A stretch of 63,249 bases of DNA, the filler included, from Kipferlia bialata (Eukaryota), in NCBI GenBank assembly GCA_003568945.1. It is 5 parts of 4 records of this genome, joined end to end, with 100 filler letters (N's around TTAATTAATTAA, not from the genome) between each part and the next. Parts side by side here need not be neighbours in the genome. Positions count along the whole stretch, not along the records: positions 54,956 to 63,249 come from BDIP01000052.1; 4 more parts are not named here. One strand, written 5' to 3'. The notes under the pieces were generated by a model that worked only from the letters and a program-made list of their open reading frames with translations, was not told the DNA's origin and ran no database searches. This document shows, piece by piece, positions 22,982 through 62,800 of this stretch. The translations under genes and the position numbers were made by a program. The first letter of the stretch is position 1; every line of letters begins with the position of its first letter.

Positions 22982-23029
<48 letters not shown>

Positions 23030-23049
23030 TTCCCCCCCCCCCCCCCCCC
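22982..23049. repeat. Poly-C run (probable mis-join point)
   Basis: About 68 nt of nearly pure C. Similar runs sit at contig ends (about 20552, 37311, 45116, 63214). Confidence 0.85.
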
Positions 23050-23075
23050 GTTCATCATCGGTCTGGTAACCTCAG

Positions 23076-23404: not shown

Positions 23405-23441
<37 letters not shown>

Positions 23442-26987: not shown

Positions 26988-27034
<47 letters not shown>

Positions 27035-27668
27035 CTTTCTATTTTCTCTCTCTCCATACATCTACGTGTGTAAGATATCATACTTACATATCAGAACCGA
27101 GTCCCAGCCCCTCCACGATGCCTCTCTCTCTCTCTCTAACTCCTTCAATATGCAATATATGTACTAATGACATGTACTAACATCAGAACCGAGTCCCAGC
27201 CCCTGCCTGATGCCTCCCCAGCCGAGGGGGTGCTACTGAGACACAGTTACAGGTATATATACATTCTACATGATTTGTTTCTATTTATAACTATATAAAT
27301 TAGAACAGCCCCTACACACATTTATGTTACATATCTATTCTATATCTGTGTTTTGTACTATATCTGTGTTTTGGTGTGTCTACTTGTATCCACACTGACC
27401 CCCAGAGACCTTGTGCCCCTTGCCCCTGCCCTCCAGAGCTGCATAGCAATGAGGTATACTATTATATACATACATATATAGGCACATATGTATATTAGAC
27501 GAAAGTTTGTGAAGCACATCACATTTGCATATTCACCAGTATTTCCCCTCCAAGACTGCCAATATGGTTTATATCCCTGTATGTATGTATATATATATAT
27601 AGTAACCCCTAGAGGTGTCCAGTCCCTGCCATCCATGACAACCAGTATACTCTTTCTCTCTCTCTCTT

Positions 27669-27713
<45 letters not shown>

Positions 27714-27802
27714 ATATATATACGTATACTAACATCTAGGGGTGTCCAGTCCCTCCCCTCCATGACAACCAGATATACTCTTTCTCTCTCTCTCTCTCAC
27801 TC

Positions 27803-27837
<35 letters not shown>

Positions 27838-29136: not shown

Positions 29137-29171
<35 letters not shown>

Positions 29172-29208
29172 TCACATATACAACCCCAGATATCGGCGGT
29201 ATGTATAT

Positions 29209-29245
<37 letters not shown>

Positions 29246-37370: not shown

Positions 37371-38962
37371 GCCAACATGGGTATGGGCGAGGAGGAGCTC
37401 GATATCTCGGATGACAGGTGGGTTCCGTAGTTGGAGTAGCGAGTCTCTGCCGTTGTTGCTTGTTTCATTGAATACCCCTCTCTCCCCCTACCCCCAGTGA
37501 CGGTGAGGCTGCCAGACTGAGGAAGAAGGTGACCAGGCAGGACAAGCTGTCGAGGAGGGGGAAGGCACCCACAGAGCCCACAGGTACACTCATGAGTGGA
37601 CTTGTCACCGATCGTGTTACACTCTACCCTCTGCATAGTCTAACCCCACAGCCAACAGGAAGGAGATCCTCTGTAACGGCCTGGTGTTTGCACCAGATGG
37701 CGGATGTGTGTACGCAGCCACACCTGAGGGTATGTTGACCTCTCAGTCCCTCTCTCTCACCTACCCTCTTTCCTCACTCTCAGGTGTCTCTGTGTTCTCT
37801 CTTGCTGGTGCTGATGCCGGTGGGTTTGACGCCACAGACCTGGAGCCCAGCATCACAGTACAGCGGTACGGAGGATACTCTCCCTCTCTCTCTCCCTCTC
37901 TCCACCCCCTGACCCCCAGTGTTGTTGAGCTGTCTGGTGAGGGCAGGCACTCCATGGCCCTAGCTATGTCCCTCAGACTAGGCAGTGTGCCCATGTGGGT
38001 GCAGTGCCTCGAGAGGGTGAGTGTGTGACTGTATTCGATGGACTCACTGTAGTCGCCCTCTTCTACTCTCTCCCCCCCTCACCCCCCAGGTCCCTCTCTG
38101 TGACCTTGAGTCTGTGATGACTGGTGTGCATGAGAGATACATCGGGCAGACACTCACTCTCCTGGCAGACTACGTCCAGGTACCCTCGTTCTCTCTCTCA
38201 ATAGTGTTTTCATTGATCTTCGTGGACTCCTCCCATAGTGCCACTCTTATTGTGTCTCTCTCTTCATAGATGAGAGATGGACTACCCCCACCCCCCTCTC
38301 CTCTCACTCTCAGACCACCTCCAGTGTCCAGTTTGCCCTGTCTGCCGCCAAGTGTCTGGTGGAGGACAACAGGTGCTCTATCATATATCTCTATCAGTAC
38401 TCAGTATGAGTGGCACATGCCATTACTCAGTACTCACCATCTCTCTCTCTCTCTGACCGTCAGGGAGTACATCAACAACAACCTGCGTGACCTCTCTGCC
38501 CCTCTGCTCCACCTCCAGAGGGCCATCAAGGGAAGGTGGGGGATACTCTTTATGTGTGAATCTGGTATATTCAAGCAACTTGTATACCCCTCTCTCACCC
38601 CAGGACCACCACCCTGGACGCCGTGTCCAGAAGGGCCCAGGAGCTGAGTACAGCTGTGGCCTGTGTGGCAGTGACTGCAAAGAAGGACAGGTCTAAGGAG
38701 ATTGAGGTGGGTTAGAGTGACTGTAATAGTATATGCACACTCCTCGTGTGTCTTCACTCTGACCCCAGATCATCCGTGAGAGGCAGCGTGAGGCCGAGGT
38801 GCTAGAGATCCAGGTAGGACTATATGTATCTGCATATCTTTGTGTATATATGTGTCTATCTTCACTCCTCTCTCTCTCTCTGACCTCTAGGCCAAGGTCA
38901 AGCAGCAGGAGGCAGAGGAGGAGGAGAGGTTCAGGACAGAGAGGAAGAGAACATACCGGTAG
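37371..38962 (+). CDS. PWP2: Periodic tryptophan protein 2 (Utp1), 3' part: last WD blade + Utp12-type helical domain
   Basis: Spliced: ...DISDDSDGE...RKEILCNGLVFAPDGGCVYAATPEGVSVFSLAG..GFDATDLEPSITVQRV..ALAMSLRLG..CLERVPLCDLESV..RYIGQTLTLLADYVQ..VQFAL..LLHLQRAI...RKRTYR*. Fits the PWP2 pattern FSPxGxxFAAAxTEGLLIYS / FDPxDLD / ALxMAxRL. Confidence 0.82.
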
Positions 38963-39319
38963 ACTTGGAGAGAGAGACTGGGGATACCGGCCTCATATAT
39001 ATGCATTTATAGACAATAGCGTCATCGTCATGATAAAATAGGGAAGAGCCAGCAGTTTTCTGAATGGTGTTATAGAGGGAGTGTATATATTTAGTTGGGT
39101 ACTTTGGGCATAGTTCTGAGTAATCAGTGAGAAGTGTCTGATGAGACACTGTCAACATTTGACTGATCAGATCAGTCTGATCTCCGAATCGGAGCTCTCC
39201 TTCCTCTCCTTCGTCTCCAACCTACTCCCAGCTGTTCTGCACTTTCCCTTCTTACAGTATTTCCGCTGCTTCCCCTTAAGGGGGTCCTTGCAGATGCAAC
39301 AGCGTCTAATGGGGTCCAT
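38931..39319 (-). pseudogene. Small intronless C4 zinc-finger-like ORF interrupted by a 14-nt hairpin footprint
   Basis: MDPIRRCCICKDPLKGKQRKYCKKGKCRTAG... stops at 39167. Deleting 14 nt of the footprint at 39162-39183 fuses it in frame to ORF 38931-39158 (EISQMLTVSHQ...). Confidence 0.45.
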
Positions 39320-39467
39320 GTTAAAGAGACATACAGCTACGACCATTTCCACTTGACGTGACCATGATACTATCTATTGACAAACACTGTAGGCATCTCC
39401 TCCGGAGTGGACAGTTAAATGCTAAAAACCATAGAGACACAATTTACTTGGTATAGTGGAGTTTAAA

Positions 39468-39566: not shown

Positions 39567-41956
39567 ATGGGGATCCGTGGCTTCTTTGGCGCTCTCAACC
39601 GTGGTGGCCTCCTCCGGCAGACCCGTCTGTCGGAGTATGCCAACAGCACCTTGCTCATCGACACCTCTGCACTCAAGTTCTCCTTTGTGCCCCTGTTGGA
39701 TGCAGACCACAGGTGGAGTCCTGAGGATGTGGCCACACACCTCAGGGCCTTCTTCCAGTCCTTCAGGGAGGTGGTCTCTGTCAAGGATGGGGCCATTGGT
39801 GCCACCCAGGCCCAGCTCAAGGTGAGGTGGATAGTATTCTGTTTTGTGTTGATCTCACCGTGTTTCTAACCCCAGAAGCGCGCCGATCGCTTTGGGGGTC
39901 GCTATGACGACTCCAGGACTGCTGCTAGGGTGAGTGACTTGCGTCTATAACATCACCATTGTGGTCCGAATTGGTATTAATAGTGATATACCCTTTGAAG
40001 TTGACTGAATGTGATATATGCCCACCCCAGTGGCTGGTACACGGTGGACAGGAGGCCCCCAACTGCCTCCTGAGGGTACTGGACGATACTGTGCAGGCCA
40101 CTCTCGCAGGGTATGTTACTACACATTACTGGGATAGTAGTGCTGTGTCCCACAAATGTGTCTCCCCCTCACCCCCAGTGTGTGCGACCGCCACATCACT
40201 GCCGTGTCAGAGGCCGATGACGTCATCATGCAGATGGCCCTCGAGAACAGGAACTGCGTCATCCTCACAGGGGACACAGACTTCTGCAAGGTATGGCTCT
40301 CCCCCCAGTATTGACTCTGCCCTCTCCACCCCTTACTCTCTATGCCACCCCCAGATCCCTTGCACCATTGTCTGGGCCAAGCCCCTCTGGAGGACCCTGG
40401 ATGCCATTAGGAGGAACGGAGGTGCTCGCAGGAGGGCTGCCCTGGTGGAGACCACAGACACAAGGAGTGCAAAGGTATTGAGATATGACCATGCATCTGG
40501 TAGATCCCTAGGACTGACACTCTTGGTTATGCTCTAACACTTAGGTTGAGGACCTTCTCCGCAGCTTCCGTGAGCGCCGCATCTCCCATGTCCCAGTACC
40601 CCATGCTATGACACAGAGGTGTGACACATATTTACATACTATATGTTATGACACAGAGGTATGGATTCAGTCTCTCTCCCACCCTCCCCTCTCTCTTCCC
40701 CTAGGCACTGCGTGTCCAAGCGGCCCTTCCCCCCGTCCTTCATGGACCTGTGGAGACAGGGCGTCATGTCTGGGGGCCTAGCAGACAAGGCCGGCCAGGC
40801 ACTTTCGAGTGTCTCCCCATGCATCGAGCACTCCCACGTGTCCTCTCCTGGCAGGGCAGTGTCCATCCAGGCCGAGGTCTGCCTCGCAAACCTGGCACTC
40901 AGGTGTATATATATTGCAGTCACTTTGCACTGCTTGTGACTGAAGCCTCTGAACCTCTGACCCTCAGGTTCTCAGCCTCCTTCTCCCGTGACACTGTGGT
41001 TGTTGAGTCATACAGGGGCAGACAGCCAGTCAAGGTGTGTGGCTAGTACCCCTCGCATATGTGTTGACCCCTTCTCATGTCCCAGCTGACCTTCCCCCTC
41101 ACCGGCACTGTCACTCTCCCTGGTGGGTCTACCCTGCCTCTGCCCACATTCTCAGAGGTGTTCCCCCCCAACGGCCCTGCCAATGGGGCAGAGAGAGACC
41201 GCTTTGTGGCAGCGGCTGGCTTCAACACTACTGACACTGCCGTACTCACAGGGGACAGGCTGCATGTCCAGAGGTGCATGCTGCTCTCAGTCATCACCAG
41301 AGAGGTGCTGCTCGGTACGGGTATTGTGGGATTCGGTTCTGTTCTAAGCCAATAGTAGTCCCCTCATCCTCAGGTGTGATCCCTGCCCACCGTCTCCTGA
41401 CCCTGGCCCTTCTGCTGTGTGGGCCAGAGGCTGGGGTAGAGCTACCCAGGAGGACAAGGTATACACATGCACACACACACACGCTTATATTTATATCTCT
41501 ATATTTACATACACTCCCCTCACCCTCAGGGCACATCCAGATGACGGGGACACCTACGGTCTCCTCAACGCCTGTCTCCCCATTGTCAGGGACTACCTAT
41601 CCCTCGGACCGGACAGGTATATATCCATTGTACTAGCCCATCATGTTCTGTATACGTATATGTGTGTGGATGTTCCCCTGACCCCAGATACGTCCCTGCC
41701 CTGTTCCCCCTCTGTGACCACAGGAGGTGCATAGCCATGGCCGCAGAGGTGGGGCATTGTATGTATAGTGATGGAGTATCAGTGATGCTAGCTCCTCTCT
41801 GACAGCCAGGTACGCACTGAGTGTGCCCCCCTCGTGACCCCCCGTGTCTACTCTGCTGCCGACCTCCTTGGCGCCCTGCTAGGTGGGGTGGACACCATGG
41901 GAGGGCGCAGGGTGGTGGGAGAGGTCCTGATGGGTATCCCCCTCCTGCAGGAGTAA
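39567..41956 (+). CDS. Asteroid/FAM120-like XPG-family PIN-domain nuclease
   Basis: MGIRGFF N-terminus, LLIDTS, KDGA, AVSEADDVIMQMALENRNCVILTGDTDF: the acidic XPG-N/XPG-I motifs are present. About 13 exons; ends GIPLLQE* (TAA 41954-41956). Confidence 0.82.
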
Positions 41957-42545
41957 GAGAGTGAGCATAGACATGAGACTGTGCACAGGGACACTGTATG
42001 AGACTGTGCACAGGGACATGCAGTGGGAGAGGGACAGGGCTAGATAGGAGAGCTCAGGTGGCTGGTAGAGTGGCAAGAGGGGATTCTGAGGCCTTACTGA
42101 GGGAGAGAGGATTTGTGGAGGACTGTATAGGTGATACTGGCTCGTGGTGGCCTGTCATAGTGGCAGGGTATCATGATCAGTATGTGAGAACAACCTCCCT
42201 GAGTTGCAAGCAGTTGTTGCTGGGAAGGGTGTTTTCATGTTGTCTTATGTCAATAGAGGGCATGATGAGGAGGCTGCCTTGGGTCTCAGAATGGTAGCTA
42301 GATAGAGGACATACTTCAGTCATCCATGTAAATGAGAATGAACTCCTCTGTGCCCAGGATAGAACACGAAACACACACAGTAATGAATGAACCTGCGATC
42401 CAATCATTGACACTCCATACTCCAAACACCTCAGCCCCGCTCATAAATAAACAGTTTTCAACCGCGTTTCCGGGCAACTGCAATCCTGGAAGTGAGTCAT
42501 TGAATAATGAATACACTAAGTATACGCTCAGAGAAAATGTCTCCT

Positions 42546-42557: not shown

Positions 42558-43242
42558 AATAATGAATACACTAAGTATACGCTCAGAGAAAATGTCTCCT
42601 CAGTACATGCAATGGTCTCTTTGTTTCGCTAGAGTTAAGAGTACCAAAGCTAGGATAGGGATATTCTTCATCATTTGTGTCTAAAACACATATATCCTCT
42701 TTACCTCACATTGGAAGACAAAGAGAGAGCACTGGACCCACTCTCTTTCGACCTGTGTTTTGATATCGCAAACAAAAACAATGTTTATTGAGCATTTATC
42801 CAAGGTGAGAAAAGGGTTAATGTACATTAATACACTGGGACGATAGATCTAACTCTTCTCTTTGAGCTATCGACCCTCGGTATGTGTACTTCTATTGTTG
42901 TCTGTATTATGGAATCCAGTCTCTGCTTGTACTCACCCTCAGAAGCGTTGGGAGTATTAACTACTTACTGATACGACGTCAAAAGGAGTCGTATACTGGC
43001 CCATTATGGAGATGAGCTTCGCAAAGAGGCCTGGCCTTGGACTTGTCCTCGGCCTTTACTCCACTTGGTACATTCTTGTTTATTGAATCCTGGGCCGCAT
43101 TGTGGAAGACTTCCACTGAGGTGGCTTAGTAACGCAACAGACAATTTCAAATTGTCAATTTGTCAGTTGCCTTGTGACACAAAAACTCAAGAGAGAAGGG
43201 GTCAGCCGAGACTGAGCCTCCTTGCCTTTATAGTAGCCAAAT

Positions 43243-44370
43243 ATGGACTTCTGCGACATTTTTGGGAACTTATTGTGGTTTGTACGTGTTCATACCTGTA
43301 TATTGTGATGTTATGGAAGAATTTGTGGGTTTCAGTGTGGGATAGTCGGTCATATGATTTCTTTTGTGTTTATTGACGCCAGATTGTAGGAGGAGAGATC
43401 GTCTTCCTCTTCTACCTCCTTGCTGGTGCCGTACTATGCGTCACAATCATCGGAATTCCCTTTGGAATCCAGCTCTTCAAGGTACCCGGATTTTGTTTCT
43501 TCATGGTACCGGTAACATTTTTTGGTACTGGTCCTATTGCTTGTATCGTCTGTGTTCACCTGGTAATCGTGTACTGTGTGGTCGTGTTAGCGTCGCCAGT
43601 GTATATCAGAGGGTTTGTCGGGCGGTTGGTCCTTGGAGTCCACTATAGTGTGCTATTATTGGATATCGGTGCAGAGTGCACTATGGGATTATGAGCTGGT
43701 CTACCCCTGTGGAAATAGTATATGGGACCACTGCTTGTAGTCTTCTGTCGTGTTGTGTTTGGGTCTCATTTATGTGGCCATTCTGTCTCTCCTATGACAC
43801 CATTTCTATATGACTCAGGTTATGCATCTTATACCGGAAAGTGATATGAGCATTTGTATAACAGGTGTGTCTCTTCTACCTCCTCTGACCCCAGATCGCC
43901 ATGTACGCTGCCTTCCCCTTCGGCCGTGTGGTCAGAAGGAGGCCAGACGCCACTGAGATGGGTATGTGACTCAAGTGTCATTGTATTGTCTTCTCTCTCC
44001 TATACTCACACTCAGGCATTTGCGGAAACGTTGTCTGGATGATCCTGGCCGGATGGTTCATTGCCCTGGTCCACACACTCGTTGGATGCCTGTTTGCCAT
44101 CACAATCATCGGTACGACTCCTGTCTAGTATTGGGACACACCTGCTCTCTCTCACTCCAGGCTGGCCCTTTGCCTGTGGCCACTGGAGACTGGCCAGGCT
44201 TGCATTCATGCCCTTCAACCACATTGTGGAGACCAAGTACCAGGTTCGTACACCACCCTGTGTCCCTGCCACTATATCATTGTATAATATATACCCTCTC
44301 ACCCCCTCAGGCCCTTGCCATTGAGCAGGAGAAGAGGAGGAACTACTACCAGCCCATGGTTGTGTACTAG
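43243..44370 (+). CDS. yccF: YccF-type (inner membrane component domain, duplicated) membrane protein, 6 exons
   Basis: MDFCDIFGNLLWFIVGGEIVFLFYLLAGAVLCVTIIGIPFGIQLFKIAMYAAFPFGRVVRRRPDATEMGICGNVVWMILAGWFIALVHTLVGCLFAITIIGWPFACGHWRLARLAFMPFNHIVETKYQALAIEQEKRRNYYQPMVVY*. Two copies of the GNxxW..GG..TIIGIPF..K.A..PFG unit. Confidence 0.9.
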
Positions 44371-45270: not shown

Positions 45271-45303
45271 TATATATCCACACTGTATACATATGATACG
45301 TAC

Positions 45304-46137
45304 CGACTGCCCTTGTGGGTAGGTACGGGTGGCCATCTGGGTCGCGTCTGGCTGGGGGGTGAGACAGACAATGAAGACATGGAATTATAAATCAGACTTG
45401 GACTTGTCTCACTGAATCAAAATGCAAGATGTACAATCAAGACAGGAATCCACACATATTTACACACATAATTGTATCCAATACCTGGCTTCCACTTGTT
45501 TGCACCCACTATGACGTCTGTCACAAGGGGGGGGAGGACAGCAGACATGTGGACTGGAGTAAGGTATGACCACACTATCAATACAATACTATTGTTCTAC
45601 TAAATGTATATGAATAAATACATAGATATGACGTCTGTCACAAGGGGGGGGAGAACAGCAGACATGTGGACTGGAAGTGAGATAGAGCAATATATGTATA
45701 TCATACACAATCAATACACGCACGCGACAAGTATTTACAGATATTGATCTAATACAGACATGTACCCATTACACATACATGAATTATACATACGATATCT
45801 GTCAGAAGAGGTCAAAGGAGTCAAAATATATATCCACATACATCAAAGAATACCTGGCAGGAGACCATACAATGCCTTGAGTGCGGCAGGTGCAGTGGGG
45901 TATATGCATATATAAGCTATGTTTCACATATACATATGAATATATATATACATATGAATATATATATATATACCTGGAAGAAGGCCATAGAGTGCCTTGA
46001 GTGCGGCAGGAGCCGTGGGGGGAAGTGGGTTCACAGGGTTGTGCTGAGGTGAGGGGTATTATGGATAGACATATTAATTGACATATACACATATATACTC
46101 AGGTTCACAGGGTTGTGCTGGGGGTTATATACAGAAG

Positions 46138-46174
<37 letters not shown>

Positions 46175-46211
46175 ATATACATACCGCCGATATCTGGGGT
46201 TGTATATGTGA

Positions 46212-46246
<35 letters not shown>

Positions 46247-47545
46247 GAGAGAGAGAGAGAGAGAGGGAGAGAGAGAGAGAGAGAGAGAAAGAGCCATACC
46301 GCCGATATCTGGGCCCCGCCTCTGGGGTTGGTGACTGAGTCACTCACAACGTCATATACTGGGGTTAAGATATATATATATATATATATATGGAGTTATT
46401 ACTACGTAGGTATAATATATATATAGTATATATATATATATATATATATGAATATGGTTGGTGACTGAGTCACTCACAACGTCATAGACTGGGGGTAAAA
46501 GAGAGAGATTTTAGTAATGTATATATATTATGTATATAATTAATATATATATATATATATACTAATATTGTTGGTGACTGAGTCACTCACAACGTCATAG
46601 ACTGGGGGTTAGAAGGGGGATATATAGTTAAACATATGAGGGAGATATGCAGACAAGTATACATACATATAAATATATATATATATAGTTGGTGACGGAG
46701 TCACTCACAACGTCATAGACTGCTGTTAAGAAGGGGATAAAAATACATACATATCAAAATGTAATCCATTCAAATACTCATTGAAAAGGTCACTTAGAAT
46801 TAATGTATATTCATATATATATGTTTATGCAATACATACCAGGCAGGCGTGAGAAATCTGGCTTGATCAACTGACACTTGCTCTAAAATATTGTAAACAA
46901 ATATAAGTAGCTCTATCATTATATATACAATACCGTACCAGGAAGGCGTGGGAAGTCTGGCCTAGTGAATACTGACACTCATATACACTATTATAATGAA
47001 TATAATATTTATACAATACTACCATTATATATATGTAATACATACCAGGTAGGCGTGGGAAGTCTGGCTTTGTGATCCTCTCTGCCCTCAGCTTGCCCGC
47101 TGGGTCGGAGATGGGGACCCTAGGGGTGAGAATAGAAGGTAACCTACATATGTGTATATATACTCACATGAATATATTGATATATATGTAAATGATGAGT
47201 CTGCCAGCTGGGTCGGAGATGGGGACCCTGTAATTAGTACTTGTTCGTATGTATATGAATTTATCCATATCTATGGATTGAGTCTGCCGACTGGGTCGGA
47301 GCCTACCATATGCAAATAGTGCTAGTACATATATATATACTAATAACCCTATATACTGATACACACCTTGCCAGGAACCCGACTGTCTCGTCCTCGCCAG
47401 TCATGGAGGGGAGGGACTGGACACCCCTGGGTGTAAATGTGTATATATAAGAATACATATATATACGAAGAGAGAGAGAGAGAGAGAAAGAGAGAGTATA
47501 CAGATAGCTGTCATGGAGGGGAGGGACTGCACACCCCTGAGGTTA

Positions 47546-47580
<35 letters not shown>

Positions 47581-47669
47581 GAGTGAGAGAGAGAGAGAGA
47601 AAGAGTATATCTGGTTGTCATGGAGGGGAGGGACTGGACACCCCTAGATGTTAGTATACGTATATATAT

Positions 47670-47714
<45 letters not shown>

Positions 47715-48348
47715 AAGAGAGAGAGAGAAAGAGTATACTGGTTGTCATGGATGGCAGGGACTGGACACCTCTAGGGGTTACTATATATATATATACATAC
47801 ATACAGGGATATAAACCATATTGGCAGTCTTGGAGGGGAAATACTGGTGAATATGCAAATGTGATGTGCTTCACAAACTTTCGTCTAATATACATATGTG
47901 CCTATATATGTATGTATATAATAGTATACCTCATTGCTATGCAGCTCTGGAGGGCAGGGGCAAGGGGCACAAGGTCTCTGGGGGTCAGTGTGGATACAAG
48001 TAGACACACCAAAACACAGATATAGTACAAAACACAGATATAGAATAGATATGTAACATAAATGTGTGTAGGGGCTGTTCTAATTTATATAGTTATAAAT
48101 AGAAACAAATCATGTAGAATGTATATATACCTGTAACTGTGTCTCAGTAGCACCCCCTCGGCTGGGGAGGCATCAGGCAGGGGCTGGGACTCGGTTCTGA
48201 TGTTAGTACATGTCATTAGTACATATATTGCATATTGAAGGAGTTAGAGAGAGAGAGAGAGGCATCGTGGAGGGGCTGGGACTCGGTTCTGATATGTAAG
48301 TATGATATCTTACACACGTAGATGTATGGAGAGAGAGAAAATAGAAAG

Positions 48349-48395
<47 letters not shown>

Positions 48396-51300
48396 CAGGC
48401 AGGGGCTGGGACTCGGTTCTGAAGGGTTAGTGTCTCAATACACTCAGAGACACTATAGCAGAGATAGAGTAAGCCCTGGATATACCTCTTTCCGCTCTCT
48501 ATCTGCAGTGACACCAGGTACTGGTTCCATGTGTCAGAGTCCGAGTGGCTGTCCTTGCATCTGAGGGGTAAGAAATACATATATACATATAAAAACATAT
48601 TAATGCATATATATATATATATATTATCATCAGTATCAGTGGCTGTCCTTGCACCTGGAGGAAAGGAGAACGTCATATATCACTATTACTAACAACTACA
48701 TGTGGCAACCATGCAGCGACACCCCACATATTGCAACTATCTCTCTCTCTCTCTATACCAATATATATACATATATATTGGCTGTCCTTACATCTGGAGT
48801 TAGTAATAAATATATATATTAATGTATATGGTTATATAACATTGAGCAGGTAGTGTGTGTGTTCCATGTGTCAGAGTCTGAGTGGCTGTCTTCACATCTG
48901 GTGACGAGACGTATAAGGAGTACAGAAAGCATTAACGTTGTATACTAACACAAATACATGTATTCCGATACCTGTTGATGACATCCACCATGCCAGTCCG
49001 AATGAGAATAATATACACTATATATATATATGAGTATATACTATGCATACTATTTATATGCATGATATATGTGTACATAAATATATATACACACCTGTTG
49101 ATGACATCCACCATGCCTGTCAATGTATTAGTACTACACACTATGAAATGCATTCTATACATATACATTATACAACTACTCTGTATCTATATGTATCCCA
49201 TACCTGTTGATGACATCCACCTTACCGGTCTCATCACCCATCTCGGACAGGAACCTGGCAATAAGGGTGTAGCGGGAGAGAGAGAGAGAGAGTACATACT
49301 AATCCTTATAACTTGATCACCTTCGCGAAGGGTGTAAATTAGGGTGTTGGCAGAGAGAAAGAGAGAGGGGGAACATACTAACCTGACATACTCTGCGAGC
49401 AGCTCTGCATTGGTGGGGTTGGCACGGATGCCAGACTCAAACCTGAGACGTGAGTGTATATATAGATGATACACATAGATGACACATATAGATGATACAT
49501 ATAGATGATACATATAAATAATATACAAAATAAATGTGTGTGTGGTGGTGGGGGGGGAGGGGGTTGGCACGGATGCCAGACTCAAACCTAGGGGGTTATC
49601 CACTCACAAACATCGTCAAACATAGACTCCTGTACATAGGTATACCTGTCAATAGCGTTCTGCCTTGCTGTGCCTGACCTGCCCATCCGGTGGTATATAT
49701 ACATACTAATATATCCAATATACTATATATATATATATATATATATATTATACCTGTTGATAGCATTCTGCCTTGCTGTGCCTGACCGACCCATCCCGTG
49801 GTACTCGAGTCTGGCCACAATGGCATAGAGGACAGACGGGACAGAGGGAGAGCCTATAGTGAGACATATGATATATGTATATATATATATATAGTACATG
49901 TATAGGGTATCTAGTCTGGCCACAATGGCATAAAGCACAGAGGGGACAGAGGGGGAGCCTAGGGTTATAAATATATATAAATACATATATATAGAGAGAG
50001 ATGTATATATACAATGGCATAGAGGACAGAGGGGACAGAGGGAGAGCCTATGGTTAGGTATACATATATGCATGTAGAGAGTACAAACATGGGTAGTGTA
50101 TATAATCTAGACACATTGTAGAGCTTGTAACACACCTAGAATCTTACTGGGATCGTCGCATGCCAGCTCAAATGCCGAAAGGGCATCAGCCACTGAACGG
50201 GTGCGGGAGACATACTTCATGTACTCACTACAGTTAGAGAGACAGAGAGAGGGATAGAGAGAGAGGGCATCAGCCACTGAACGTGTTCTTGACACGTACT
50301 TCATGTACTCACTATAGTTAGATAGAGAGAGAGAGAGAGGGAGAGAGAGAGAGCGAGAAAGAGAGAGATGGGAAATAAACGCATTAGCCACTGAACGGGT
50401 GCGGGAGACATACTTCATGTACTCGCTGAGAATGAGTGGGAGAGAGCGTACCAGAATAGGAAGAGAGACAAACACACACACATACACACACATACACACA
50501 GTACCTGAAGAGTGCTGGGCTGGGTGCGGATACAATAAGCACATGCTTGTAATATATAGATAGTACATGGAACACATGAGAGAAAGATTACCTGAATAGA
50601 GCTGGGCTGGGTGCCGATATGAGTGCCCTTCTGTAGACGGCATCGGCCAGGTGGCGCTTGTTGTTCTAGTTGTTAGATTGAGAATAGATTCAATACTACC
50701 AATGATTGGAATCCATTTAGACAATAACCCATGTCAACGCATATTATACTGGTATATATACCTCCTCGTATCTGTCTGCCAGACACATGTATAGCAGGGC
50801 ATATCGATAGTATTAAATACAGTTAGTAAACACATATATTCAAATATTTGCATATACATATATATATATACTGTACCTCCTCGTATCTGTCTGCCAGACA
50901 CATGTAGAGCAGGGCACACTTGGGACAGGCCAGGATGCCCCTCTGGAGCAGACCTGGAAGTCAATATATATATATTTATATTATATATTTATATTTATAT
51001 TATATATTTATATTTATATTATATATATATATTTTTCTATATCTCGGTATATATATAGATATTCTACATTGGGACAGGCCAGGATGCCCCTCTGTGAGTA
51101 TAAGATACATATATACTAGGTCCACACTAAATATTAATGCATATATATGTGTGTATCTATATATATTGGGACAGGCCAGGATGCCCTTTTGCAGAAGGCC
51201 TAGGGATGAGTATATATAACAATATTCATACATATCATATATATGTATCCCTCTCTCACTCTTTGAATATATATATAAAGTACTATACACACCTATTGCA

Positions 51301-51941
51301 ATCTCCTTGCCAGTCAGTGCCCCGTATGCCATGTCGTGCTTCAGCATGGTGCGAGACATGATAGTTCTAGAGGTAAGGGTAGATAGATATATATATAGAG
51401 AGAGAGAGATACTAAGATAGAGAGTGAGTGAATGGTGCGGGACACAATGGTCCTAGAGATCATGCATAGAGCCACAAAGAGTATGTAAAGGAGGGAGAGA
51501 GACAGCAAACATAGTCAGTACTCATATAATGCAATATATATATTTATATACCTTGCCCCCGACATGACCTCCGCTGCCTCGATCCACAGGTCGGGCCAGT
51601 GCCTGGGGTAAAAAGACATAGGTAATACGATTATAAATTCGCCATATGAATACGAAGATAGAGCGAGTATATACATATGTATGTATGAGTTATCAAAGCC
51701 AGAATACTATTTGGAATACAAATATCTGTATATATCCGTATATGTACATGAAATAGAGAGTACCTCAGGTGCAGCAGAACATGCTCATACACAAAAATAA
51801 CGAGATTACCAATATATGTACAAATACATTACTACATAGATTCATAGTCAGAATAGAAGAGAGAAAGTACCTCAGGTGCAGCAGTACTTGCTCATTGACA
51901 TCAAACACACAATAGTAGTTGGAATACATAAGAATATACTA

Positions 51942-51978
<37 letters not shown>

Positions 51979-52307
51979 TGTATGTATACCTCAGGTGCAG
52001 CAGTGCCTGCTCGTACACAAACAATAGTCTGTTGGCAGCGAGACCAGCGTCAAGCTGCATGGAGTCGCCTAAAGTCAATTGAGAGTCAGGAATAGTCACA
52101 AATAGTCGGACGGATCTCCAATTTGTTGTGAATAATATGAATACTGTGGTACGTACCGAGCAGTCTCTCAAAGTCAATGACTTCAGTCAATACAAGATAT
52201 ATATATATACATATAAGATACATAGAGTGACCCAGTTAATTGAGTGACTTACACGTACCGAGTAGTCTCTCAAAGTCAATGACGTCCTTCCAGAGGGCCA
52301 TCTGAAC
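45304..52307 (-). CDS. CSTF3: Mirror copy of CstF-77 exons 23076-30079
   Basis: Reverse complement of the + strand copy, inside the duplicated contig. Confidence 0.7.
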
Positions 52308-52353
52308 CTGAGGTTACCAGACCGATGATGAACGGGGGGGGGGGGGGGGGGAA

Positions 52354-52401
<48 letters not shown>

Positions 52402-52421
52402 GTATCCACATAACACCCCAC

Positions 52422-54758
52422 CTGTCGTGCTGGATGGTGACCTTCAGCATCCAGTGCTTACCGGCACCCATGTGGGCTGTGGTCACGTCCTGCCTCAGTG
52501 TCCTGATGTCAGTATCAGTATCAGTATTAGTATCAGTATCAGTATCGATACTGAGAGATTGACATTGCTACTGTCACCTGATGTCCACTGTGCCTCCTGT
52601 GATCAATACAGCACCCCCTGTGAATGACTCGGGGGGGATGTGCTCGGCCACCTTGCCAAACATGAGGGCGGCAAGGCCTGGCGTGGGGGGGGGGGGAGGG
52701 AGTGCATATATACATAGAGTACATATAGCAGGGCACACCGACCTGAGACACTCCTCTTGGCACCGTGTGTGTGTGTGTACCCGAGGTTGAGGAGGTATGC
52801 GTGGCCGAGCTGCTCCTCCGTCAGATGAGAGACAGAGTGCACCAGGCCCATGGTCACCATGTAGTCGACTGAGAGGTAGGCTGTGAGGAGGGGGTCTGCG
52901 TGGAGCATGTAGGTGTGCAGCAGGGTCCTATCCTTGGCCATCACACTCCTGAACTCGACAGAGGAGAGGGAGATACCCTCCCCCGTGCCCTGGCTGTCGT
53001 GGGACATGCATGCAGAGACACACACCTTGGACGCCATCTCCTCGGACATGCCCAGGAACCTAGGTGTAAGTAAGTACGTCAAAAAAATATACAAATAACA
53101 CACATAAGAAATATGTATGGCACCTGAGGACACCGGAGAGTGTCTCTGAGGTGACAGTCATGGTCTCGATGGGGACACCTGGGACGGCAGAGGGCATCTC
53201 GTTCAGCCAGTCCTCAAGCACACCTGGGGGTGAGGGATAGTATATATGAAGAGAGAGAGAGTGAGAGGGCAAGGCCTCCAGCACACCTGGCGGTAATGGA
53301 CAGTGGTAGTATAGAGAGAGAGAGAGTATGAGGGTAAGGCCTCAAGCACCTAACACTCAATGATAGTGGTAGTATATAGATAGATAGAGTATGGGGCAGG
53401 GTATGTATACCTGAGGGGTGTGCGTAGTCGTGCTTGTTCCTGGTCCACCTGGCCTCTGCAGCATATGTCATGGAGGTCATGTCATGGGAGGACTGGGGGG
53501 TGAGGGTCATTCTATATATAAATAGAAAGAGAGAGAAAGAGAGAGATGGAGAGATGGAGAGATTCTGTCATGGAGGTCATGTCATGAGAAGACTGATGTA
53601 AGGGGTAAGAGAGACAGAGAGAGAGACATAAATATAGTCCCGCACCTCGATGTTGGCAGCTGGGGATGCACAGTGGATCCTGACTGGCTTGGATGGGACA
53701 CCGGCTGTCTCACAGGAGGCAGCATAGAGGGCAAAGGCGGCAAGGGTGCCAAACTCCCTGGATGTCAGTATATACCAGAGTACGTACCACTCATAAATGT
53801 ATATATATATATTGTATATGTATATTCGAATAGATACCTAGAGTTGAGCTTCCTGTTTGGCACCACCACGTCTGACAGCACGTCCTGGCCATCCACCACA
53901 CACTGGCCCTCCCACAGCTCCTGGGCGGCAGTGCCCAGACCAACCATGGCATACTCCCTCTCAGTCCCTGGAGGTAGGAGGGAAAGGAGGGGAAGTGAGA
54001 GAGAGAGAGAGAGAGATAGAGAGATAGCCAAGGCCCACCACGGCATACTCCCTCTCGGTGCCTAAAGGGGTAGGAAGGGAGGTGAAGTGAAGGAAGAGGG
54101 AGAGATTACGTACCTGGTGCCATGTAGAGCCCCTTGTCAGCGTCTGCCTCTGCCGCAGCCCTGGCAGCCTCCATGGTGTCCTGTCCATCCCCGTCGATGA
54201 AGACGACTGATGCCCACTTGCCACAGACAGGGGCCTCGGACATCTCACGGCCTGGGGTAAACGGGGGGGGGGGGTTATGGTTAGAGAGACTAGTGGGTAC
54301 TCAAGAGAGAGTCACTCATAGTCAAGAGAGAAGAGATTAGACACTATAGGACACTCTCTCACCGATTGTGCATGCCGTGTACATCTGGTAGAGCCCAGAG
54401 AGCCCCAGGGGCCTCCTGGCATCCACGTAGAGCACTGTCTTGAGCCTCATGTGGGAGGCCACGGTGGCAATCTCCAGCAGGTGGAGGGCCAGGAACGGGG
54501 CCTTCTCGGGAGAGTATGGGATGTGGATGGTCCTATCGGAGGAGCCCGGGGGAGGGGCAAAGAAGGAAGAGTCCAGACCGGCCTGGGGTGAGGGACTATA
54601 TCACTACATACAGAGGAAGAGACTCAGTCCATGGGTGAGTATACACAGACACCCACCGAGAGAGCGGCTCCGATGATGACACCGGCAAAGGCCCTGACGG
54701 AGATGTCTCCCATCCTCTGGATGTTCTCCAGCTTGACCACCCACTGGCCATCTAGGTC
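52422..54758 (-). CDS. Mirror copy of hypothetical gene 20625-22961
   Basis: Reverse complement, inside the duplicated contig. Confidence 0.6.
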
Positions 54759-54855
54759 CTAGGGGGAGAGGGAGAGAGAGAGAGAGAGAGAGAGAGAAGC
54801 ACAGAATGGGAGGGGGGGGGGGGGGGGGGGGTGGGTTGTTTTTTAGACAAAAAAA

Positions 54856-54955: not shown

Positions 54956-54988
54956 TATCTATATACTATATACATTCTCTATATATAC

Positions 54989-57529
54989 CTGCATGCGCTG
55001 CCACTGCCCTATCTCTGGGTCTAGGGACCAGCAGTCTCTGAGAATAGAGGCATCGTCTGTCCTGCCTCCTAGGGGGTAAGTATATGTATAATATTGTGAC
55101 TCTAGTATTTATGATACTGATACTGTCACTAGACCAGAGCAACAGCAGTCTCTAAGGAGAGAGGTATTGTTTAGTTTGCCTCCTAGGGGTGTGTATTCCA
55201 TTCAGAGTATACCCGCCATGTCATGATGTATCATATCTTAGCCAGGATACTTGAAGGTTTCATACTGGTTGTATCATACCACCCATGTATGCATCAATTG
55301 TATGAGTACTGACTCTTCGGTGCATATACATACAACACTGTATTTTACGTATACATATGGGGAAGGGGAGACAGTACCTGCAATGTAGAGACGGCCTCCC
55401 AGTGTCCACGAGGAGTGTCCGTATCTAACGTTAGAAAAGTAATAGAAATGTAGGTAGAAATATTAATTCTATAGCCTAACGACGAGTGGCCGTATCTAAT
55501 GTTATCACAGAACAGTAATTGGCTATTACTGTTACTAATGGTATCATAAGTAACCGTATACCACAATAGTCAAGACGACTATGAATGTAACCTATGTATA
55601 CAGCCTACTATATATAATCTACTATATGTATAATCTACTACATACGTAATCTACTATATATGTAATCACCTAGCACAAGGCCACTTGTCAGTCTCTCTCT
55701 CTCTCTTACACTCAGTCCACTCCTTGGTGATCAGGGAATACACCGCTAGCCGGGAGAGAGCACCCACTGATGTTAATTACTATATAGGTTATTGTATTTT
55801 ATATGTCTATTAGTTTCGTAACCAGATCACCTCCTGGGGTAAATACTTGTATATAGGAAGAGAGCGACATATCAACGAGCTGAGATATATTCATTATTTT
55901 GCCGTTGAATTCAAATGTATGTGTGTATATATGTCGTAATGGCAAAGATCTGTGTTTACATGGGGGGGGGGGCACGTACTTCGCTGGTTATCCCCTCCGA
56001 ACTGCAGTATGAAGTCTCCTATTCTAGTGCCAGGTGCATGAGCAACCTACTATGAGTGTTGTACACTTAATATACTATATTTTTATATATATTGTATATA
56101 TAGTATATTTGGTAAATATACATATATGTGAACTGCAGTATGAAGTCTCCTATTCTGGTGCCTGGTGCATGTGCAACCTATTCTAAGTGCATATAGTATG
56201 TATATACACTGTAAGCCATATGGTTTATATACTACATCTATTAACACATACTGCATACTATATATTAACAACTATTTGTATCTAGTGCCACGTGCATGCA
56301 CAAACTATTCTAAGTTAGAATCTAACTTAGAATTTCTTAGGGCATATATTCCATATATAGTACGTATGTAATGCAAACTAAATACACAACGCACACTACA
56401 TTTACAATATCTAAATACACATAGGAAGAAGAACTACAATGTATGGGAGGCAAGAGCAGCCCCAACTTGTTCTGAGTGAAAAGAAATATCAGTATAATAT
56501 CATTACTCATAATAGTAATAGTGTATATATTGTAAGAGTATATGTATAGAAACTCCCTATCTCTTTCCCTAATAGGGAGAGAGTAGGTGGGAAGAAGGCG
56601 TCATCATGTTATAGTAAATACAATACTAGATACTAATTATTACTTGTATATATATTGAGAGAGAGGGTGGGTGGGAAGAAGACATCATCAATATTCAATA
56701 TTTATTATTACAACTAATGTGTACCTCCATATCTGTGTGTCTACTTATAATATATATATATATATATATATACTATATATTGTATAGTATATTCAATATA
56801 TACTAATACAACTAATGTGTACCTCCATATCTGTGTCTCTACACCCTATATACTTATAAATATATACTTATAAGTATTACTTATATATATATATTATTCA
56901 ATACCACTAATCTGTACCTCCATATCTGTGTCTCTACAATCCAATTTGGGCTCACATGAGTAAGAGTAAGGTCCAGGGGCCTGCGGTGAAACGAGGTTCG
57001 CAGATACACCACAGAATAGGTCTTCTAATCTGAGCAGAGATTGGAAATTCCAATTTGGAATATATGATACATCATATCTCAACCACCAGGTCCATCAAAC
57101 TTGCACTCAAACCTTCTGGGTGCAAGTGAGGGTATACATATACATACACACACTCACACACACACACATATATATATATATACATATACATATTTATATA
57201 TACATATGCATACATACACACACATATATATATATGGGTATATGTCTACAAATACATTTGCATAATATGCATTGCACACATACATACATATATATGTGTC
57301 TATATACACATATGCATACTTTTACCTTCTGGGTGCAACTGAGGGTCACATGCGGGTAGTAGGGGAACCCATGCATGTTCTTTCCTGCAATCACTGCAGA
57401 ATACTCGTCTCCCGGAAGGAGAGAGGGGGATGGGGATACACCATCTGCTGAAAGGGTGCCACTGTATGCCAGACACACACACTCCCCCTTATGCTTCGCA
57501 TCATACTCTGTCCACTTGATATCAGGCAT
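54989..57529 (-). CDS. Kelch-repeat protein, intron-rich, 3' end lost at linker
   Basis: MPDIKWTEYDAKHKGECVCLAYSGTLSADGVSP...TQK|APGPYSYSCEPK...|VAHAPGTRIGDFILQFGGDNQR|..LAVYSLITKEWTECKRERETDKWPCAR|YGHSSWTLGGRLYIAG|GRTDDASILRDCWSLDPEIGQWQRMQ. Canonical Kelch R-x-x-H, GG, DxW and W motifs. Exon structure between 56.4 and 56.7 kb is unresolved. Confidence 0.8.
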
Positions 57530-58641
57530 CAACCTCTCAGAGAGACCAGAGAGAGCGATAGAGAAAGCTACAGGAGAGCAGCTTCATATCTCTCCGACTT
57601 TCCAGAATCGGAGATTTTTGCTCGCTCACACCCTTTTGTCATATTGGCCAGTGTCTCTCTACCATACATGGCTTGGCTTAATAGCCGCAAGAAACATAGA
57701 CGAGAATCATACAGGGTGTCTGGTCCAGACGCTGGGTGTTCGGACCGCTATGGATTCTCATTTCCAATATAACTTAGTTACCAGACAATCATACTTCTGG
57801 CTCTAGTCAGTTTTGGAACTGGCAGAAACATGAGTGTAATTATAGCCCCCCACATATTGATATGTGGCACTTACTGATATGAGTATAGGCAGCAGAGAGT
57901 TAATATACTAATGGATTCAGGCCAGCGCTATGCAGAATCGTGATCTCGTGACTGATAATATCAGTCTGATATACAGACATTTACACTCGTCTGAATCTAT
58001 CTTCCACTTCAACATCATAACGTACCTGAGTGCCAGTATATGTATACTGTCAACTACATTACTGCCCTGCATAAAGACGTACCTCTGTCTGCAATGCTGA
58101 AGTACTTATGCGCCTGATGTACTCTGTGGTCTGTGTGTAGAATCTGCGTATCTGCAGCATTCATATACATATGCACTGTAGGATACAATGTATACACACC
58201 CTTACCCCCTGACACTGCGGTGCACTGCTTCCCGGGTATTCATTCAAAATTCACTACGTGTAAGTAAAAGAGTATCACTATATCGTATAGTGACTATATA
58301 GTGACTATATATCACCCCCCAACCGAATTTCACAGCTATATCGAAACCGATCAAAGGGGTACCTCAGCCCCAAGACAGTCTATACTGTGTAGGTACTTCC
58401 ACTATATGCCTTGGGACAACATGCCCTAGCAGTGCTGTGACTGGTTTCTACTGTTGAGTCAACAGTATTGACTCAACACTGTTGAATCTATGCGCGTTTG
58501 AACATCATCCCTGAGAGAGCTCTATACAGTCCGGAGTGAAAACCTCTCGCTCGATAGAAACCATACTGCAGTAGAAGGCTATCATGACTCTTCGCCACTA
58601 CCGTGTGTCTTCTTTACCTAGCCTAAGGGATATATAGTCAG

Positions 58642-60888
58642 ATGGCTCGGATGACGGACCCTGTAACTGGACACCGCTATGACACACACACAGAGCAGCT
58701 GACACGTGACACATTTGAAGTTCCACAGCAGCTCTTAGTGGATAGAGGCGAGAGAGTATATGGCAACCCACTAACATGTGTGTACCTAGGCCCTCTCAGC
58801 GCTGATGGTGTCTCCCCCGCCGAAACACTAGAGGAAGGCCAGCACTACGTGTCAGACTGACACTGTCAGTGGTCATAGGAGGGCAAGGGCGTAGATCATC
58901 AGGCTCGCGTTTCTGCCAGACCAGCTGTGTGCTGTTGACCCTAGATACTGGGACTGGACACTGTCCAGTGGACACTGTCCAGTGGACAGTACACTTCCGA
59001 GGTGGTTCCAGGCGTTCCTGTCTCCGAGTGTGGTTTAGACCCCCTAACTGCCGTACGCAATGGTGACTCAGTGGTTGTTTTCGCTAGTTCTCATCAGATT
59101 AAGAAGCCCCGACAGAGTTATGGTTATTCTGAAGCCACGACACTTGTGAATGCTCTATACGTATATTCCATCAGGGACAAGACATGGAGAGTTGTGCCTA
59201 AGAGTGGAGAGTGGCCCAAAGGGAGAAAGAGTGAGAGTTCTTGGTGTCTCGGAGGGCGATTCTACATTGCAGGTGGCATGAACCAAACGGGTATGGCGCT
59301 GAATGACTGTTGGAGATTCGACTTCCTTTCAAATGAGTGGACCCAGCTTTCAAACGCCCCAGTGGCTTTCTGCTTATCCTGTACAGTGGCAGACCTCGAC
59401 ACTGTCCATTTGTTTGGAGGCTGCGGGTCATACGATGATACAACAGTATGCAAAATGCACGTAACATTCAAGAGGTCGTCTAATAACGCTGGGTATTGGC
59501 GTCAATGTGCTGATCTTCCCATAGTGGTGAGTGCAGCAGTTACTTTACAATATTGACCCATATTTAAGTAGGTAACACTATGTCGTACTCTGAGGATATT
59601 GCCCTGTTTCTGGGACGCATACATTGCAACTGTACTGTCTGTCCGACAGACTGTGCAAGACGACAGACTGTCGTCTTGCTTACGATAGGTGAACCGGATG
59701 GCAGGCCTTGTAGCCCAACCCGTTTTCATAAAACCCAATGTGTACCTCATGGGAGCTCTCAGACACCATCCTGACAACTCCAACAGAGGCTTAGATAGGT
59801 ATTGGTATGTCTCCAGGCTCGGTTCTGGAGAATGGATGCAAGTGATGACTAAGACACCTTATGCGGCGTACTGTTGTTGTGTTGCTGGACCGCGTACTAT
59901 CCTGGTACATCATGCATCAGGTAGGCAGGGGTGTCTGACGCTGTGGAAGACGGTTGAGAGCCCGTGGGAGAGAAAGAGGAGAATGGAGAGGGAACGTCAA
60001 CGTCAGACTGCAAGGCAGCGCAGCAGAGAGCAGCAGAGGACGAGCACAAGCACTCACACTCCTCCACATGTGTACCCCTACCCTCCTACAGACCACTCTA
60101 CAGACAGCAAGGCCACTAGTACACCAAGAGCTAACACTGGAGCTCGTCCAAGTATGTTCAACCGGCCACATGCTACCAGTTGGGGGAGCACTCACCCTGA
60201 GAGGCAGAGCATGCAAGAGAAGGCGAGAAAGAGGAGAGAGGAAAGAGAGAGAAAGAGCCAACATGAACAGGAACAGAAGCATGAGAGTGAGAGGCAGAGG
60301 GAGAGGGGGAGATCTGATAGTGCACAGCACTTACACCGGCAAGAGAGAGGGGATGCAGATGCCCGGGAGAGAGCTAGGAATTTCAGTGCCTGTACAGACG
60401 ACTATTACAAGGTACCTCACCCCGCTATCTGAAATTTCAAGGATACGTATATTTACTATACATATATACTCTAATTGTCACGTAGAATATGTTTGCTATG
60501 GCAGCTGCTCTCCAAGGCTAAGCATAGATACTTGGTGTCGCCCAGAGTTCAAGTCTCACAGAGATCAGCAAGGCCTTCCGGAGGCTAGCGCTCAAGTGGC
60601 ACCCAGGTCATATAGTTACATTGTTAGTATTGAATCTAGATGCACTGGTATTGATATAGAAATGATATATATTCCAACACACACCAGGTTCTGCAGCAGA
60701 ACCTCTGCTCGAATGCGCAATGTTACTTTAAAGGTATTTCTTACACCCCAGACCACAACCCAAACAGAATTGAGATGGCGTCTATGATGTTCAAGCGAAT
60801 CACAGCTGCCTATTCAGTGCTCAGGGAGCCTCAGGAGAGGGCCGCATACGACAAGTACTGCTGGATGCGGCTGTACGTGAACCAGTGA
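58642..60888 (+). pseudogene. Kelch-repeat + C-terminal DnaJ (J-domain) protein, frameshifted by hairpin footprints
   Basis: Kelch blades (WPKGRKSESSWCLGGRFYIAGG..NDCWRFD..W; VHLFGG). J-domain spliced over introns 60412-60527 and 60607-60751: DYYKILGVAQSSSLTEISKAFRRLALKWHPDHNPNRIEMASMMFKRITAAYSVLREPQERAAYD (HPD intact). Frameshifts at 58849-58870 and 58954-58989, and a further break at 59550-59690. Confidence 0.75.
58849..58989. mobile_element. Two putative DNA-transposon (hAT-like) excision footprints
   Basis: gtgtcag-actgacac-tgtcagt and ctggaca-ctgtccag-tggaca-ctgtccag-tggacag, i.e. T[1..7]+revcomp(T)+T[2..8] of an 8-mer. No element is present; transposon origin is inferred. Confidence 0.55.
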
Positions 60889-61113
60889 CCATGTGTAGGA
60901 GTGCCACTATATATTCAGCGCGCTTGGGGCTTTGAATACTTCTAGTGTTGAATAGACACTACTTAGTTCACTCCCAATGAAGCTTTGGGGTATATGAGGG
61001 ACTTGAACTGAGTAGCAGATTGAATTGTAGGGTGACAACGAATCGTTGACAACAATCTCCCTTACTCTGTGTTCCGTGTAGACTGTTGTGTCTCAATGAA
61101 ACGCAAACACGAT

Positions 61114-62800
61114 TTATGGCCCATGGTAGTTCGCAGCTGCCTCTCTCACCCTTTCCACATCCACGTGTAGTATGTAGTGCTTCCCATCCCACGTCACCAG
61201 GAAAGACGCGGGACCAACCTACTATCAACCGAGTGACCATATGCATAAATACACACACACACATATACACAAATAAGAATATACATAAGTGTATATCATT
61301 ATACAACACACATATCCTGCAGTAGTATATATATGGTAAATATTTGATACATATACTTGGAACCAACCTGTGCCCGGACCTCCCATGCACACTGGTCCTG
61401 TGGCACTGCCTGGAAGAGAGGGGACCACTGCCCCGAGACAGGATCCAGAGCACTCACTACATACCACCTACGTGCCGCAGCTGGGCCAAGCATTACGCAG
61501 ATGACTAGACTTCCCACTCTTATTAGAGATCTCTCCATGATACTGCCTCGAAAGTCCTGTAGAGCCCTCCTCCAACCACTCTCTGCTGTGTACTCATTGA
61601 AGATAACCGTGCACTCTGACTGCCGTCCTTCATACTCCATGATGGTGGCTGTTCCAGAGAAGAGGGTATCTCCTATCACGAACCGAACTGATCTCATCTT
61701 TCTCCGAAAGTGACGCCGCCAAGACCGTTTAATGACGCCGTGTCTTTGCTCTGTCCACTGCTGAGAGGTAGGATCGAAGGTCCAAGTGTGGCCGTGCTCA
61801 TAAAATACTAAAGCACCCCCAACATTGTATAGAGTCTGGTGGTGAGCACGAGATTCATGCAGCCAGTATTTGTGTGAACTGAGAAGCAGATACAAGCCAG
61901 CAATTACGCCAGAATGTCTCACTGTGACATACTATGATACTATGATAGTATGATACTATCACTCACCCCTGGTCCCTCTGGTCTCACCCCCTGCGCATGG
62001 CTGGTCCAGGTACCTGGGGTTAGTGTATCTATCTATCTATCTGTCTATCTATATACTAATATAACTATCTATATATCTATATCTATAATTATCTCTTCTT
62101 ATATTTATATATAGGCATAGTGAAGTAGAGTGAAGTGCATGGCTGGTCCAGGTACCTGAGGTTAGTGTATCTAATAGATACTATCAATAGCAACACCTGG
62201 GTCATTTAGTACAAGTGACAGAGAGAGGCAGGGATGGTGACAGAGGAACATAACACAAATGGAAATGGAAACTGAGATGTCACTGACACGTAAATCTAGC
62301 AGTTACTATCAGCACTGGTAATCTACCTGACTCATGGTTGAACATATATACATATACATATACATTCATATATATGCGTGTGCATCATCCATATATATAT
62401 ATATATATAGTGTATATACACATATTATACCTGACTCATGGTTGTACATCCACAGTTTCACAGGGTAGTCACCCAGGTCAAGAGTACCCCACTCCCCTCT
62501 GTGTCCATCAATCTCCTGCCTGATAAGATACGAGACCTCACCCACCCTCACACAGGAGGTATACTCAATCTCGGGACATCCCTTGCTCTCCTCTCCCCTC
62601 CGAAACACTGGCTTGCCCCCCTCCCCCTCTCTGTCCAGGGTGTATACGTATCCGTCGTGGGTGTTCAGGACTGACCCAGGCCAGAGAGGCATGGGGGAGA
62701 AGTGGGGTGAGGCTATCTCAACCTCTTCTAGCCACACGCATGCGTCTCTCGTTTCAACCAGATCTCTGATGGAGAGGGTTGGAAGTACACCGGGAGTCAT
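61114..62800 (-). CDS. Divergent Kelch-like / beta-propeller protein, 4 exons
   Basis: MTPGVLPTL...SCVRVGEVSYLI...KLWMYNHES|GTWTSH...PG|TLYNVGGALVF..TWTFDPTSQQW..FVIGDTLF..SALDPVSGQW..RAQ|VGPASFLVTW...NYHGP*. Repeated DP-x-S-x-x-W and VG/IG motifs. Confidence 0.7.

Follow-up and report, generated by a model that had tools for sequence, protein, structure and literature searches.

Exon 1 of a predicted Kelch-coiled-DnaJ gene of Kipferlia bialata carries two inserts, 58856-58869 (14 nt) and 58961-58988 (28 nt), which are frameshifting scars of a +14 type. We think it likely that they were left by excision of a cut-and-paste transposon that duplicates 8 bp of its target (most probably of the hAT type), and that they made a pseudogene of a recently intact gene. 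The gene lies in a window of 63,249 nucleotides, the whole stretch of DNA that was analysed, which joins five parts of assembly GCA_003568945.1. When both inserts are left out, the remaining 873 nt form a single open frame that starts at 58642, encodes 290 aa and ends with a stop at 59556, as an earlier sequence-only reading had proposed. Translation stops after 72 aa in the unrepaired sequence, after 136 aa when the first insert alone is removed and after 122 aa when 14 nt are taken from each site. Compensation of one frameshift by the other (14+28=42) was considered and rejected, because four stops sit between the two inserts and no protein is rescued.

Three K. bialata Kelch paralogues align without gaps over both repaired junctions, and a profile built from eight K. 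bialata paralogues matches the pieces flanking the inserts and also the joined frame as one stretch. The register with a minus-strand paralogue in the window, on which the earlier reading had relied, holds at the first junction, which is covered by a tblastn hit at 57466-57383; an exon for the second junction was sought in this paralogue and not found. Insert lengths of 14 and 28 nt are fixed by the repeat structure of the DNA and not by protein register alone, which scores 395 for removal of 17 nt and 391 for removal of 14 nt at site 1 and ties at 390 for 31 and 28 nt at site 2. The direction of change can be read at this locus from the coding frame together with the paralogues, which non-coding scars cannot provide. 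That the patterns are insertions, as first proposed, is borne out by the paralogue register and also by a tandem duplicate at 61995, in which the word underlying the scar at 62167 stands once and without a scar.

The gene itself is most likely longer than first read. Judged from the sequence, the stop at 59556 falls inside a likely intron that begins with a GT donor at 59527, and three introns predicted from frame and homology, two of them with weak acceptors, extend the gene to a stop at 60888. The Kelch/coiled/DnaJ protein so predicted has 593 aa, and its frame is broken at the two scars and nowhere else (Table 1). Pfam Kelch hits fall on 58990-59553, and the Kelch and DnaJ parts are fused in one predicted gene at 58642-60888. 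The closest named relatives of the Kelch piece found by profile search are K. bialata proteins. The paralogues KIPB_011066, KIPB_011166, KIPB_011597, KIPB_013423, KIPB_005314, KIPB_008549, KIPB_010706 and KIPB_002742 have the N-terminal block, the Kelch blades and the charged tail in common with it, and the three tested by BLASTP show 37-38% identity to the read-through protein. Unlike the gene described here, none of the eight ends in a DnaJ domain among the Pfam hits listed, and none carries either insert. No match was obtained in word-based protein searches with a single Kelch piece as query, exact look-up of 9 window frames found none on record, and a protein atlas search with the first 72 aa gave no usable match. 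Under simulated random substitution a stop appeared after a median of 15 changes, with a 95th percentile of 62 changes in 1,782 sites (<0.035 per site). Since the 593 codons hold no other stop or frameshift, constraint would have been lost very recently if the gene model is right, and the two scars are likely to have turned a recently intact gene into a pseudogene.

Table 1. Scars, predicted gene parts and paralogue in the window
Feature	Position	Strand	Basis
Scar 1, exact, 22 nt, net +14, introduces a stop at 58858-58860	58849-58870	.	
Scar 2, 36 nt, rule with a further 14-nt unit (W[2-7]+revcomp W), net +28	58954-58989	.	
Compound scar in predicted intron 1 on a word of 7 bp, with both inverted arms, a 4-nt copied filler and a longer right arm	59638-59673	.	
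One-mismatch scar in intron between predicted exons 3 and 4	60688-60709	.	
Exact +14 scar upstream of the Kelch gene	57951-57972	.	
Multi-unit scar with mismatches, ~160-190 nt upstream of the start codon	58451-58486	.	
Exact +14 scar, apparently intronic, in the Kelch paralogue of the window	57040-57061	.	
One-mismatch scar; tandem duplicate 61995-62031 keeps a single word	62167-62188	.	
Exact +14 scar in 3' UTR, unchanged in spliced RNA contig	39162-39183	.	
Exact +14 scar in 5' UTR of YccF-domain gene, unchanged in spliced RNA contig	43141-43162	.	
Two overlapping exact +14 scars (34803, 34819)	34803-34840	.	
Predicted exon 1 of Kelch-coiled-DnaJ gene, holds both scars	58642-59526	+	frame, paralogues
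Predicted intron 1, GT..AG, 162 nt long, weakly scoring acceptor	59527-59688	+	frame, homology
Predicted exon 2 (final Kelch blades, charged coiled tail), colinear with paralogues	59689-60411	+	profile/homology
Predicted intron 2	60412-60527	+	frame, homology
Predicted exons 3-4 (60528-60606, 60752-60888), DnaJ domain, stop at 60888	60528-60888	+	
Predicted intron 3	60607-60751	+	frame, homology
Intron-rich Kelch paralogue, register reference of the sequence-only reading	54962-57583	-	

The scars follow one rule: in place of a word W of 8 bp stands W[1-7]+revcomp(W)+W[2-8], a stretch of 22 nt with a net gain of 14. Counts were made on 53,276 unique bases, with one copy of an identical 9,585-bp segment masked. 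Exact matches were found for 8-bp words at 7 sites and for 7-bp words at 3, with 0 in 10 shuffles; words of 6 bp and of 9-12 bp gave no site, and 5-bp words gave 6 against 0.5 expected from shuffles, three of these six being tandem copies. Allowing up to one mismatch raises the number of distinct 8-bp sites to 12 (7 exact and 5 with one mismatch), against none in 5 shuffles. When simple sites were chosen by arm symmetry alone, 7 of the 8 had the complement of the lost base at each of their two centres; the exception was a CT microsatellite. Scar 2 agrees with this complement-centre rule by decomposition. The rule and the 8-bp length support the earlier description of the patterns as footprints, though the element itself is not seen; the 8-bp target duplication is deduced from the scars, with seven exact 8-bp sites, and not from an inserted element. 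A scan of 12 distant metagenome loci (24-40% identity, 84,736 bases), which serves as a negative control only, returned no 7- or 8-bp scar.

Short footprints of the Ac type (+7 to +13, fitting the hairpin rule) show no excess in the window. There are five +8 forms against 3.9 expected and two forms in total from +9 to +13, as compared with five +14 forms against none expected under a stricter filter, and the 14 forms of +7 that fit the hairpin rule are no more enriched than the 18 that do not. One +7 look-alike in exon 1, at 58699, was discarded as within chance. These scans detect palindromic scars alone, so that precise excisions and deletions escape them.

The earlier proposal of repeated hits on the locus agrees with the distribution of the scars, two of which lie in exon 1, two in predicted introns and three upstream. 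A stretch of 5.2 kb around the Kelch gene holds seven of the 12 sites (p=0.002, for a stretch picked after looking), and the density over the whole window, 0.23 scars per kb, is biased by this hotspot, which the Kelch gene would occupy and in which it would have received its two exonic scars. A second hotspot is present at 34803-34881, where a 7-bp scar and an overlapping pair of 8-bp scars lie within 80 nt and insertion took place beside or into an earlier scar. Scar 2 was also considered as a second insertion into a first scar, and this was rejected because the centre bases, worked out by hand, would differ from those seen. Exact 7-bp-word scars (+12) are located at 833-851, 34863-34881 and 56308-56333, the last nested in a 13-bp palindrome; they may be due either to occasional 7-bp duplications or to a second element. 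Palindrome chains occur at 61928-61961 and 58273-58315, one of which fits a 9-bp word with one mismatch.

A sequence of steps that could yield the rule can be drawn up from known hAT chemistry. The element would insert and thereby duplicate the 8-bp word W. On excision each flank would lose one base on one strand and would be sealed as a hairpin, the tip of which is the complement of the lost base. A host nuclease, for which Pso2/SNM1 or Mre11 are the listed candidates, would then open the two hairpins 8 nt or more away from their tips and expose the inverted W on both ends. The arms would anneal across the full 8 nt and be sealed to give W[1-7]+revcomp(W)+W[2-8], the product seen at the 7 exact sites. 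At site 2, one cycle of extension and release followed by renewed annealing at the 6-nt W[2-7] repeat would produce the second 14-nt unit, during repair or at later replication; the extra unit could be the result either of synthesis in trans resembling SD-MMEJ (synthesis-dependent end joining mediated by microhomology) or of later slippage. As 14 cannot be divided by 3, every exonic +14 scar shifts the frame, and surviving scars should therefore lie mostly in UTRs, introns and intergenic DNA. No convincing element with terminal repeats and target duplication was present in the window, where a terminal-repeat scan gave AT-rich chance pairs alone, and no transposase family was found in 150 of the 390 longest stop-to-stop window frames, of at least 60 aa. 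The responsible transposon is therefore one that we infer from its scars.

Footprints of transposons that break genes have long been known and are classical. Those of Ac/Ds contain palindromic inserts centred on the complement of the element-adjacent base, which derive from flank hairpins (PMC5873905), and are mostly joined at microhomologies (PMC5873905; PMC2921059); flank hairpins are common to hAT, Transib, MULE and RAG, and hAT duplications are mostly of 8 bp (PMC5499845). The K. bialata scars resemble Ac/Ds footprints of plants, Saccharomyces and Candida in their complement-centred palindromes, microhomology joins and 8-bp duplication. In contrast, Ac/Ds footprints are a mixture of short deletions and palindromes, often of 1-3 nt in Candida and beet (PMC5873905; PMC2921059), whereas here, among palindromic scars, the +14 product with the whole inverted word dominates and short forms are not in excess. 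Hermes prefers targets of the form nTnnnnAn (PMC10512250). The scar words likewise tend towards T at position 2 and A at position 7, but in only 14 of 24 half-sites (p=0.0015; this test and the hotspot statistic concern 12 sites and were picked after looking), and in addition they lack T at position 1 (0/24 half-sites).

The same course of hairpin formation and annealing could have been set off by an element other than a hAT, such as a MULE, which makes duplications of 8-10 bp and forms flank hairpins, or a further element with 8-bp duplications, e.g. Merlin; we hold this to be unlikely though the strongest of the alternatives. Muta1/MULE elements share flank hairpins and duplications of 8 or 9 bp with the scars (PMC5499845), Merlin with 8-bp duplications is present in metamonads (PMC8101967), and the three 7-bp scars and the one-mismatch 9-bp candidate would be accommodated. 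However, excision of Muta1 in yeast is mostly precise (>90%), and footprints are rare where the duplication is present (PMC5499845). Among 24 metamonad genomes Merlin was found in Preaxostyla only, and the available text of that report does not use the word hairpin (PMC8101967). The T2/A7 bias of the scar words, moreover, would fit Hermes-type hATs; a hAT element is the one we prefer.

The scars could also be real and the gene still functional, by splicing around them, by a downstream start or through an intact second allele, which we judge slightly less probable again. An in-frame ATG at 59278 would give 395 aa including the DnaJ domain, no further lesion is seen in the 593 codons, and contigs may hide alleles. 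RNA contigs show that the window is eukaryotic and intron-rich, with GT..AG joints of 54-413 nt (12 joints listed). The earlier claim that no frame-restoring GT-AG pair is available was overstated: such pairs exist, for example 22 nt at 58968-58989 and 44 and 62 nt at site 1, and GT..AG solutions of at least 20 nt that rescue the frame number 95 single and 586 double. Compared with the RNA-supported introns, these pairs near the scars are short or weak. The best single rescue intron scores 4.2 and would delete 393 nt of conserved sequence, and in the best two-intron rescue the weakest intron scores 0.1. When the 13 RNA-supported introns were left out one at a time, 11 of them scored at least 12.6 and the other two 2.2, on a matrix built from these 13 introns. 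The scars themselves lack GT..AG ends, and elsewhere scars are not removed from RNA: those at 39162 (piece 38889-39358) and 43141 (piece 43058-43281) are kept in spliced contigs, 2 of 2 among the pieces listed. None of the RNA pieces listed lies over the Kelch gene (58000-60900), to which we give no weight with respect to expression. Scar 1 (58856-58869) creates a branch-like CTGAC followed by CAG, resembling acceptors of this organism. Its AG scores -0.9, next to -0.4 and -2.2 for the predicted acceptors of the gene itself, and a 62-nt intron at 58808-58869 would restore the frame there. Because the matrix is built from 13 introns and this AG scores like the gene's own weak acceptors, we call rescue by splicing unlikely and go no further, and such scars could seed new splice sites. 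Elsewhere, 39568-41957 holds an RNA-supported multi-exon gene with a weak XPG_N match (E 0.02), whose 3' end overlaps RNA piece 41808-42421.

An origin without any transposon, in which ordinary breaks are mended by Pol theta snap-back and trans synthesis (SD-MMEJ) or by template switching, appears improbable. Snap-back and trans SD-MMEJ do generate inverted and direct repeats (PMC5728401), the window is rich in short tandem duplications (52 clusters), no element was seen in it, and the compound scars require iterative synthesis; the cycle of annealing, extension, release and re-annealing described for Drosophila (PMC5728401) suits the additional 14-nt unit as well as the compound scar of the intron. 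SD-MMEJ is, however, primed by repeats that pre-exist in the flanks (PMC5728401). By itself it does not yield a fixed 8-bp complement-centred core, and it does not explain why sequences that are unrelated should share a word length of 8 bp, a loop of 1 nt at each of the two centres and the complement rule. An assembly artefact, suggested by the scaffold gaps and by a 9.6-kb segment placed twice, is very improbable, given that a separately built DNA contig over 57570-62016 (depth 470, possibly from the same sample) shows zero differing letters or gaps and that RNA contigs carry two other scars; as contigs drop alleles, this agreement does not speak to a scar-free allele. The duplicated segment (20528-30112 and 45271-54855) is one stretch of 9,585 bp present twice in inverted orientation, 100% identical and bounded by N gaps, and is probably a scaffolding artefact.

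The window further contains the 52 clusters of short direct repeats just mentioned, mostly of 30-60 nt copies lying 85-360 nt apart (e.g. 55999-56189, 56691-56938, 61995-62173 and 27570-27983), two of which are gap overlaps. Many comprise a splice junction and a partial exon, as if exon-intron junctions had been tandemly duplicated into introns, and they are concentrated in 1-34 kb, a region without any 8-bp scar. These clusters may be another product of repair in the absence of NHEJ (non-homologous end joining), or a route of intron gain.

Searches of the open-access literature gave neither a genome-wide scar fixed at +14 nor any account of Kipferlia transposons, and the available text of the K. 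bialata genome paper holds a single mention of transposable elements, which concerns Trichomonas. The locus contributes the direction of change in a coding frame, the persistence of other scars in mRNA and a host lineage for which the set of repair genes suggests an explanation. Metamonads have been reported to be devoid of Ku and other NHEJ proteins (PMC8516963). In the supplementary table of that study K. bialata has no entry for Ku70, Ku80, Lig4, Artemis, Lig3, CtIP or PARP but has entries for Pol theta, Mre11, Rad50, Pso2/SNM1 and Lig1 (PMC8516963). The scars were probably healed without the usual end-joining repair proteins, the absence of which would explain the dominance of one long, microhomology-joined product.

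The interest of the scars lies in this combination of a single long footprint type with a host reported to lack NHEJ, as they bear on how metamonads mend hairpin-capped breaks. A signature of a fixed 22 bp lends itself to counting in any assembly, whether or not the element is known. It would therefore provide a direct test of whether footprint shape tracks the repair-gene inventory across protists, a map of where elements inserted in the past and of their target preference, and a means of dating and explaining pseudogenes. Given these findings, we put forward a wider proposal, which we regard as quite possible though somewhat short of probable: that a fornicate without Ku, ligase IV and Artemis mends transposon hairpin ends almost only by annealing of the whole inverted target duplication, with opening by Pso2/Mre11, filling by Pol theta and sealing by ligase I, so that each jump leaves a fixed +14 scar that always shifts the frame. 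The genome would then be a fossil map of perhaps ten thousand jumps, and excision, which would never restore a gene, would drive turnover of the large Kelch family.
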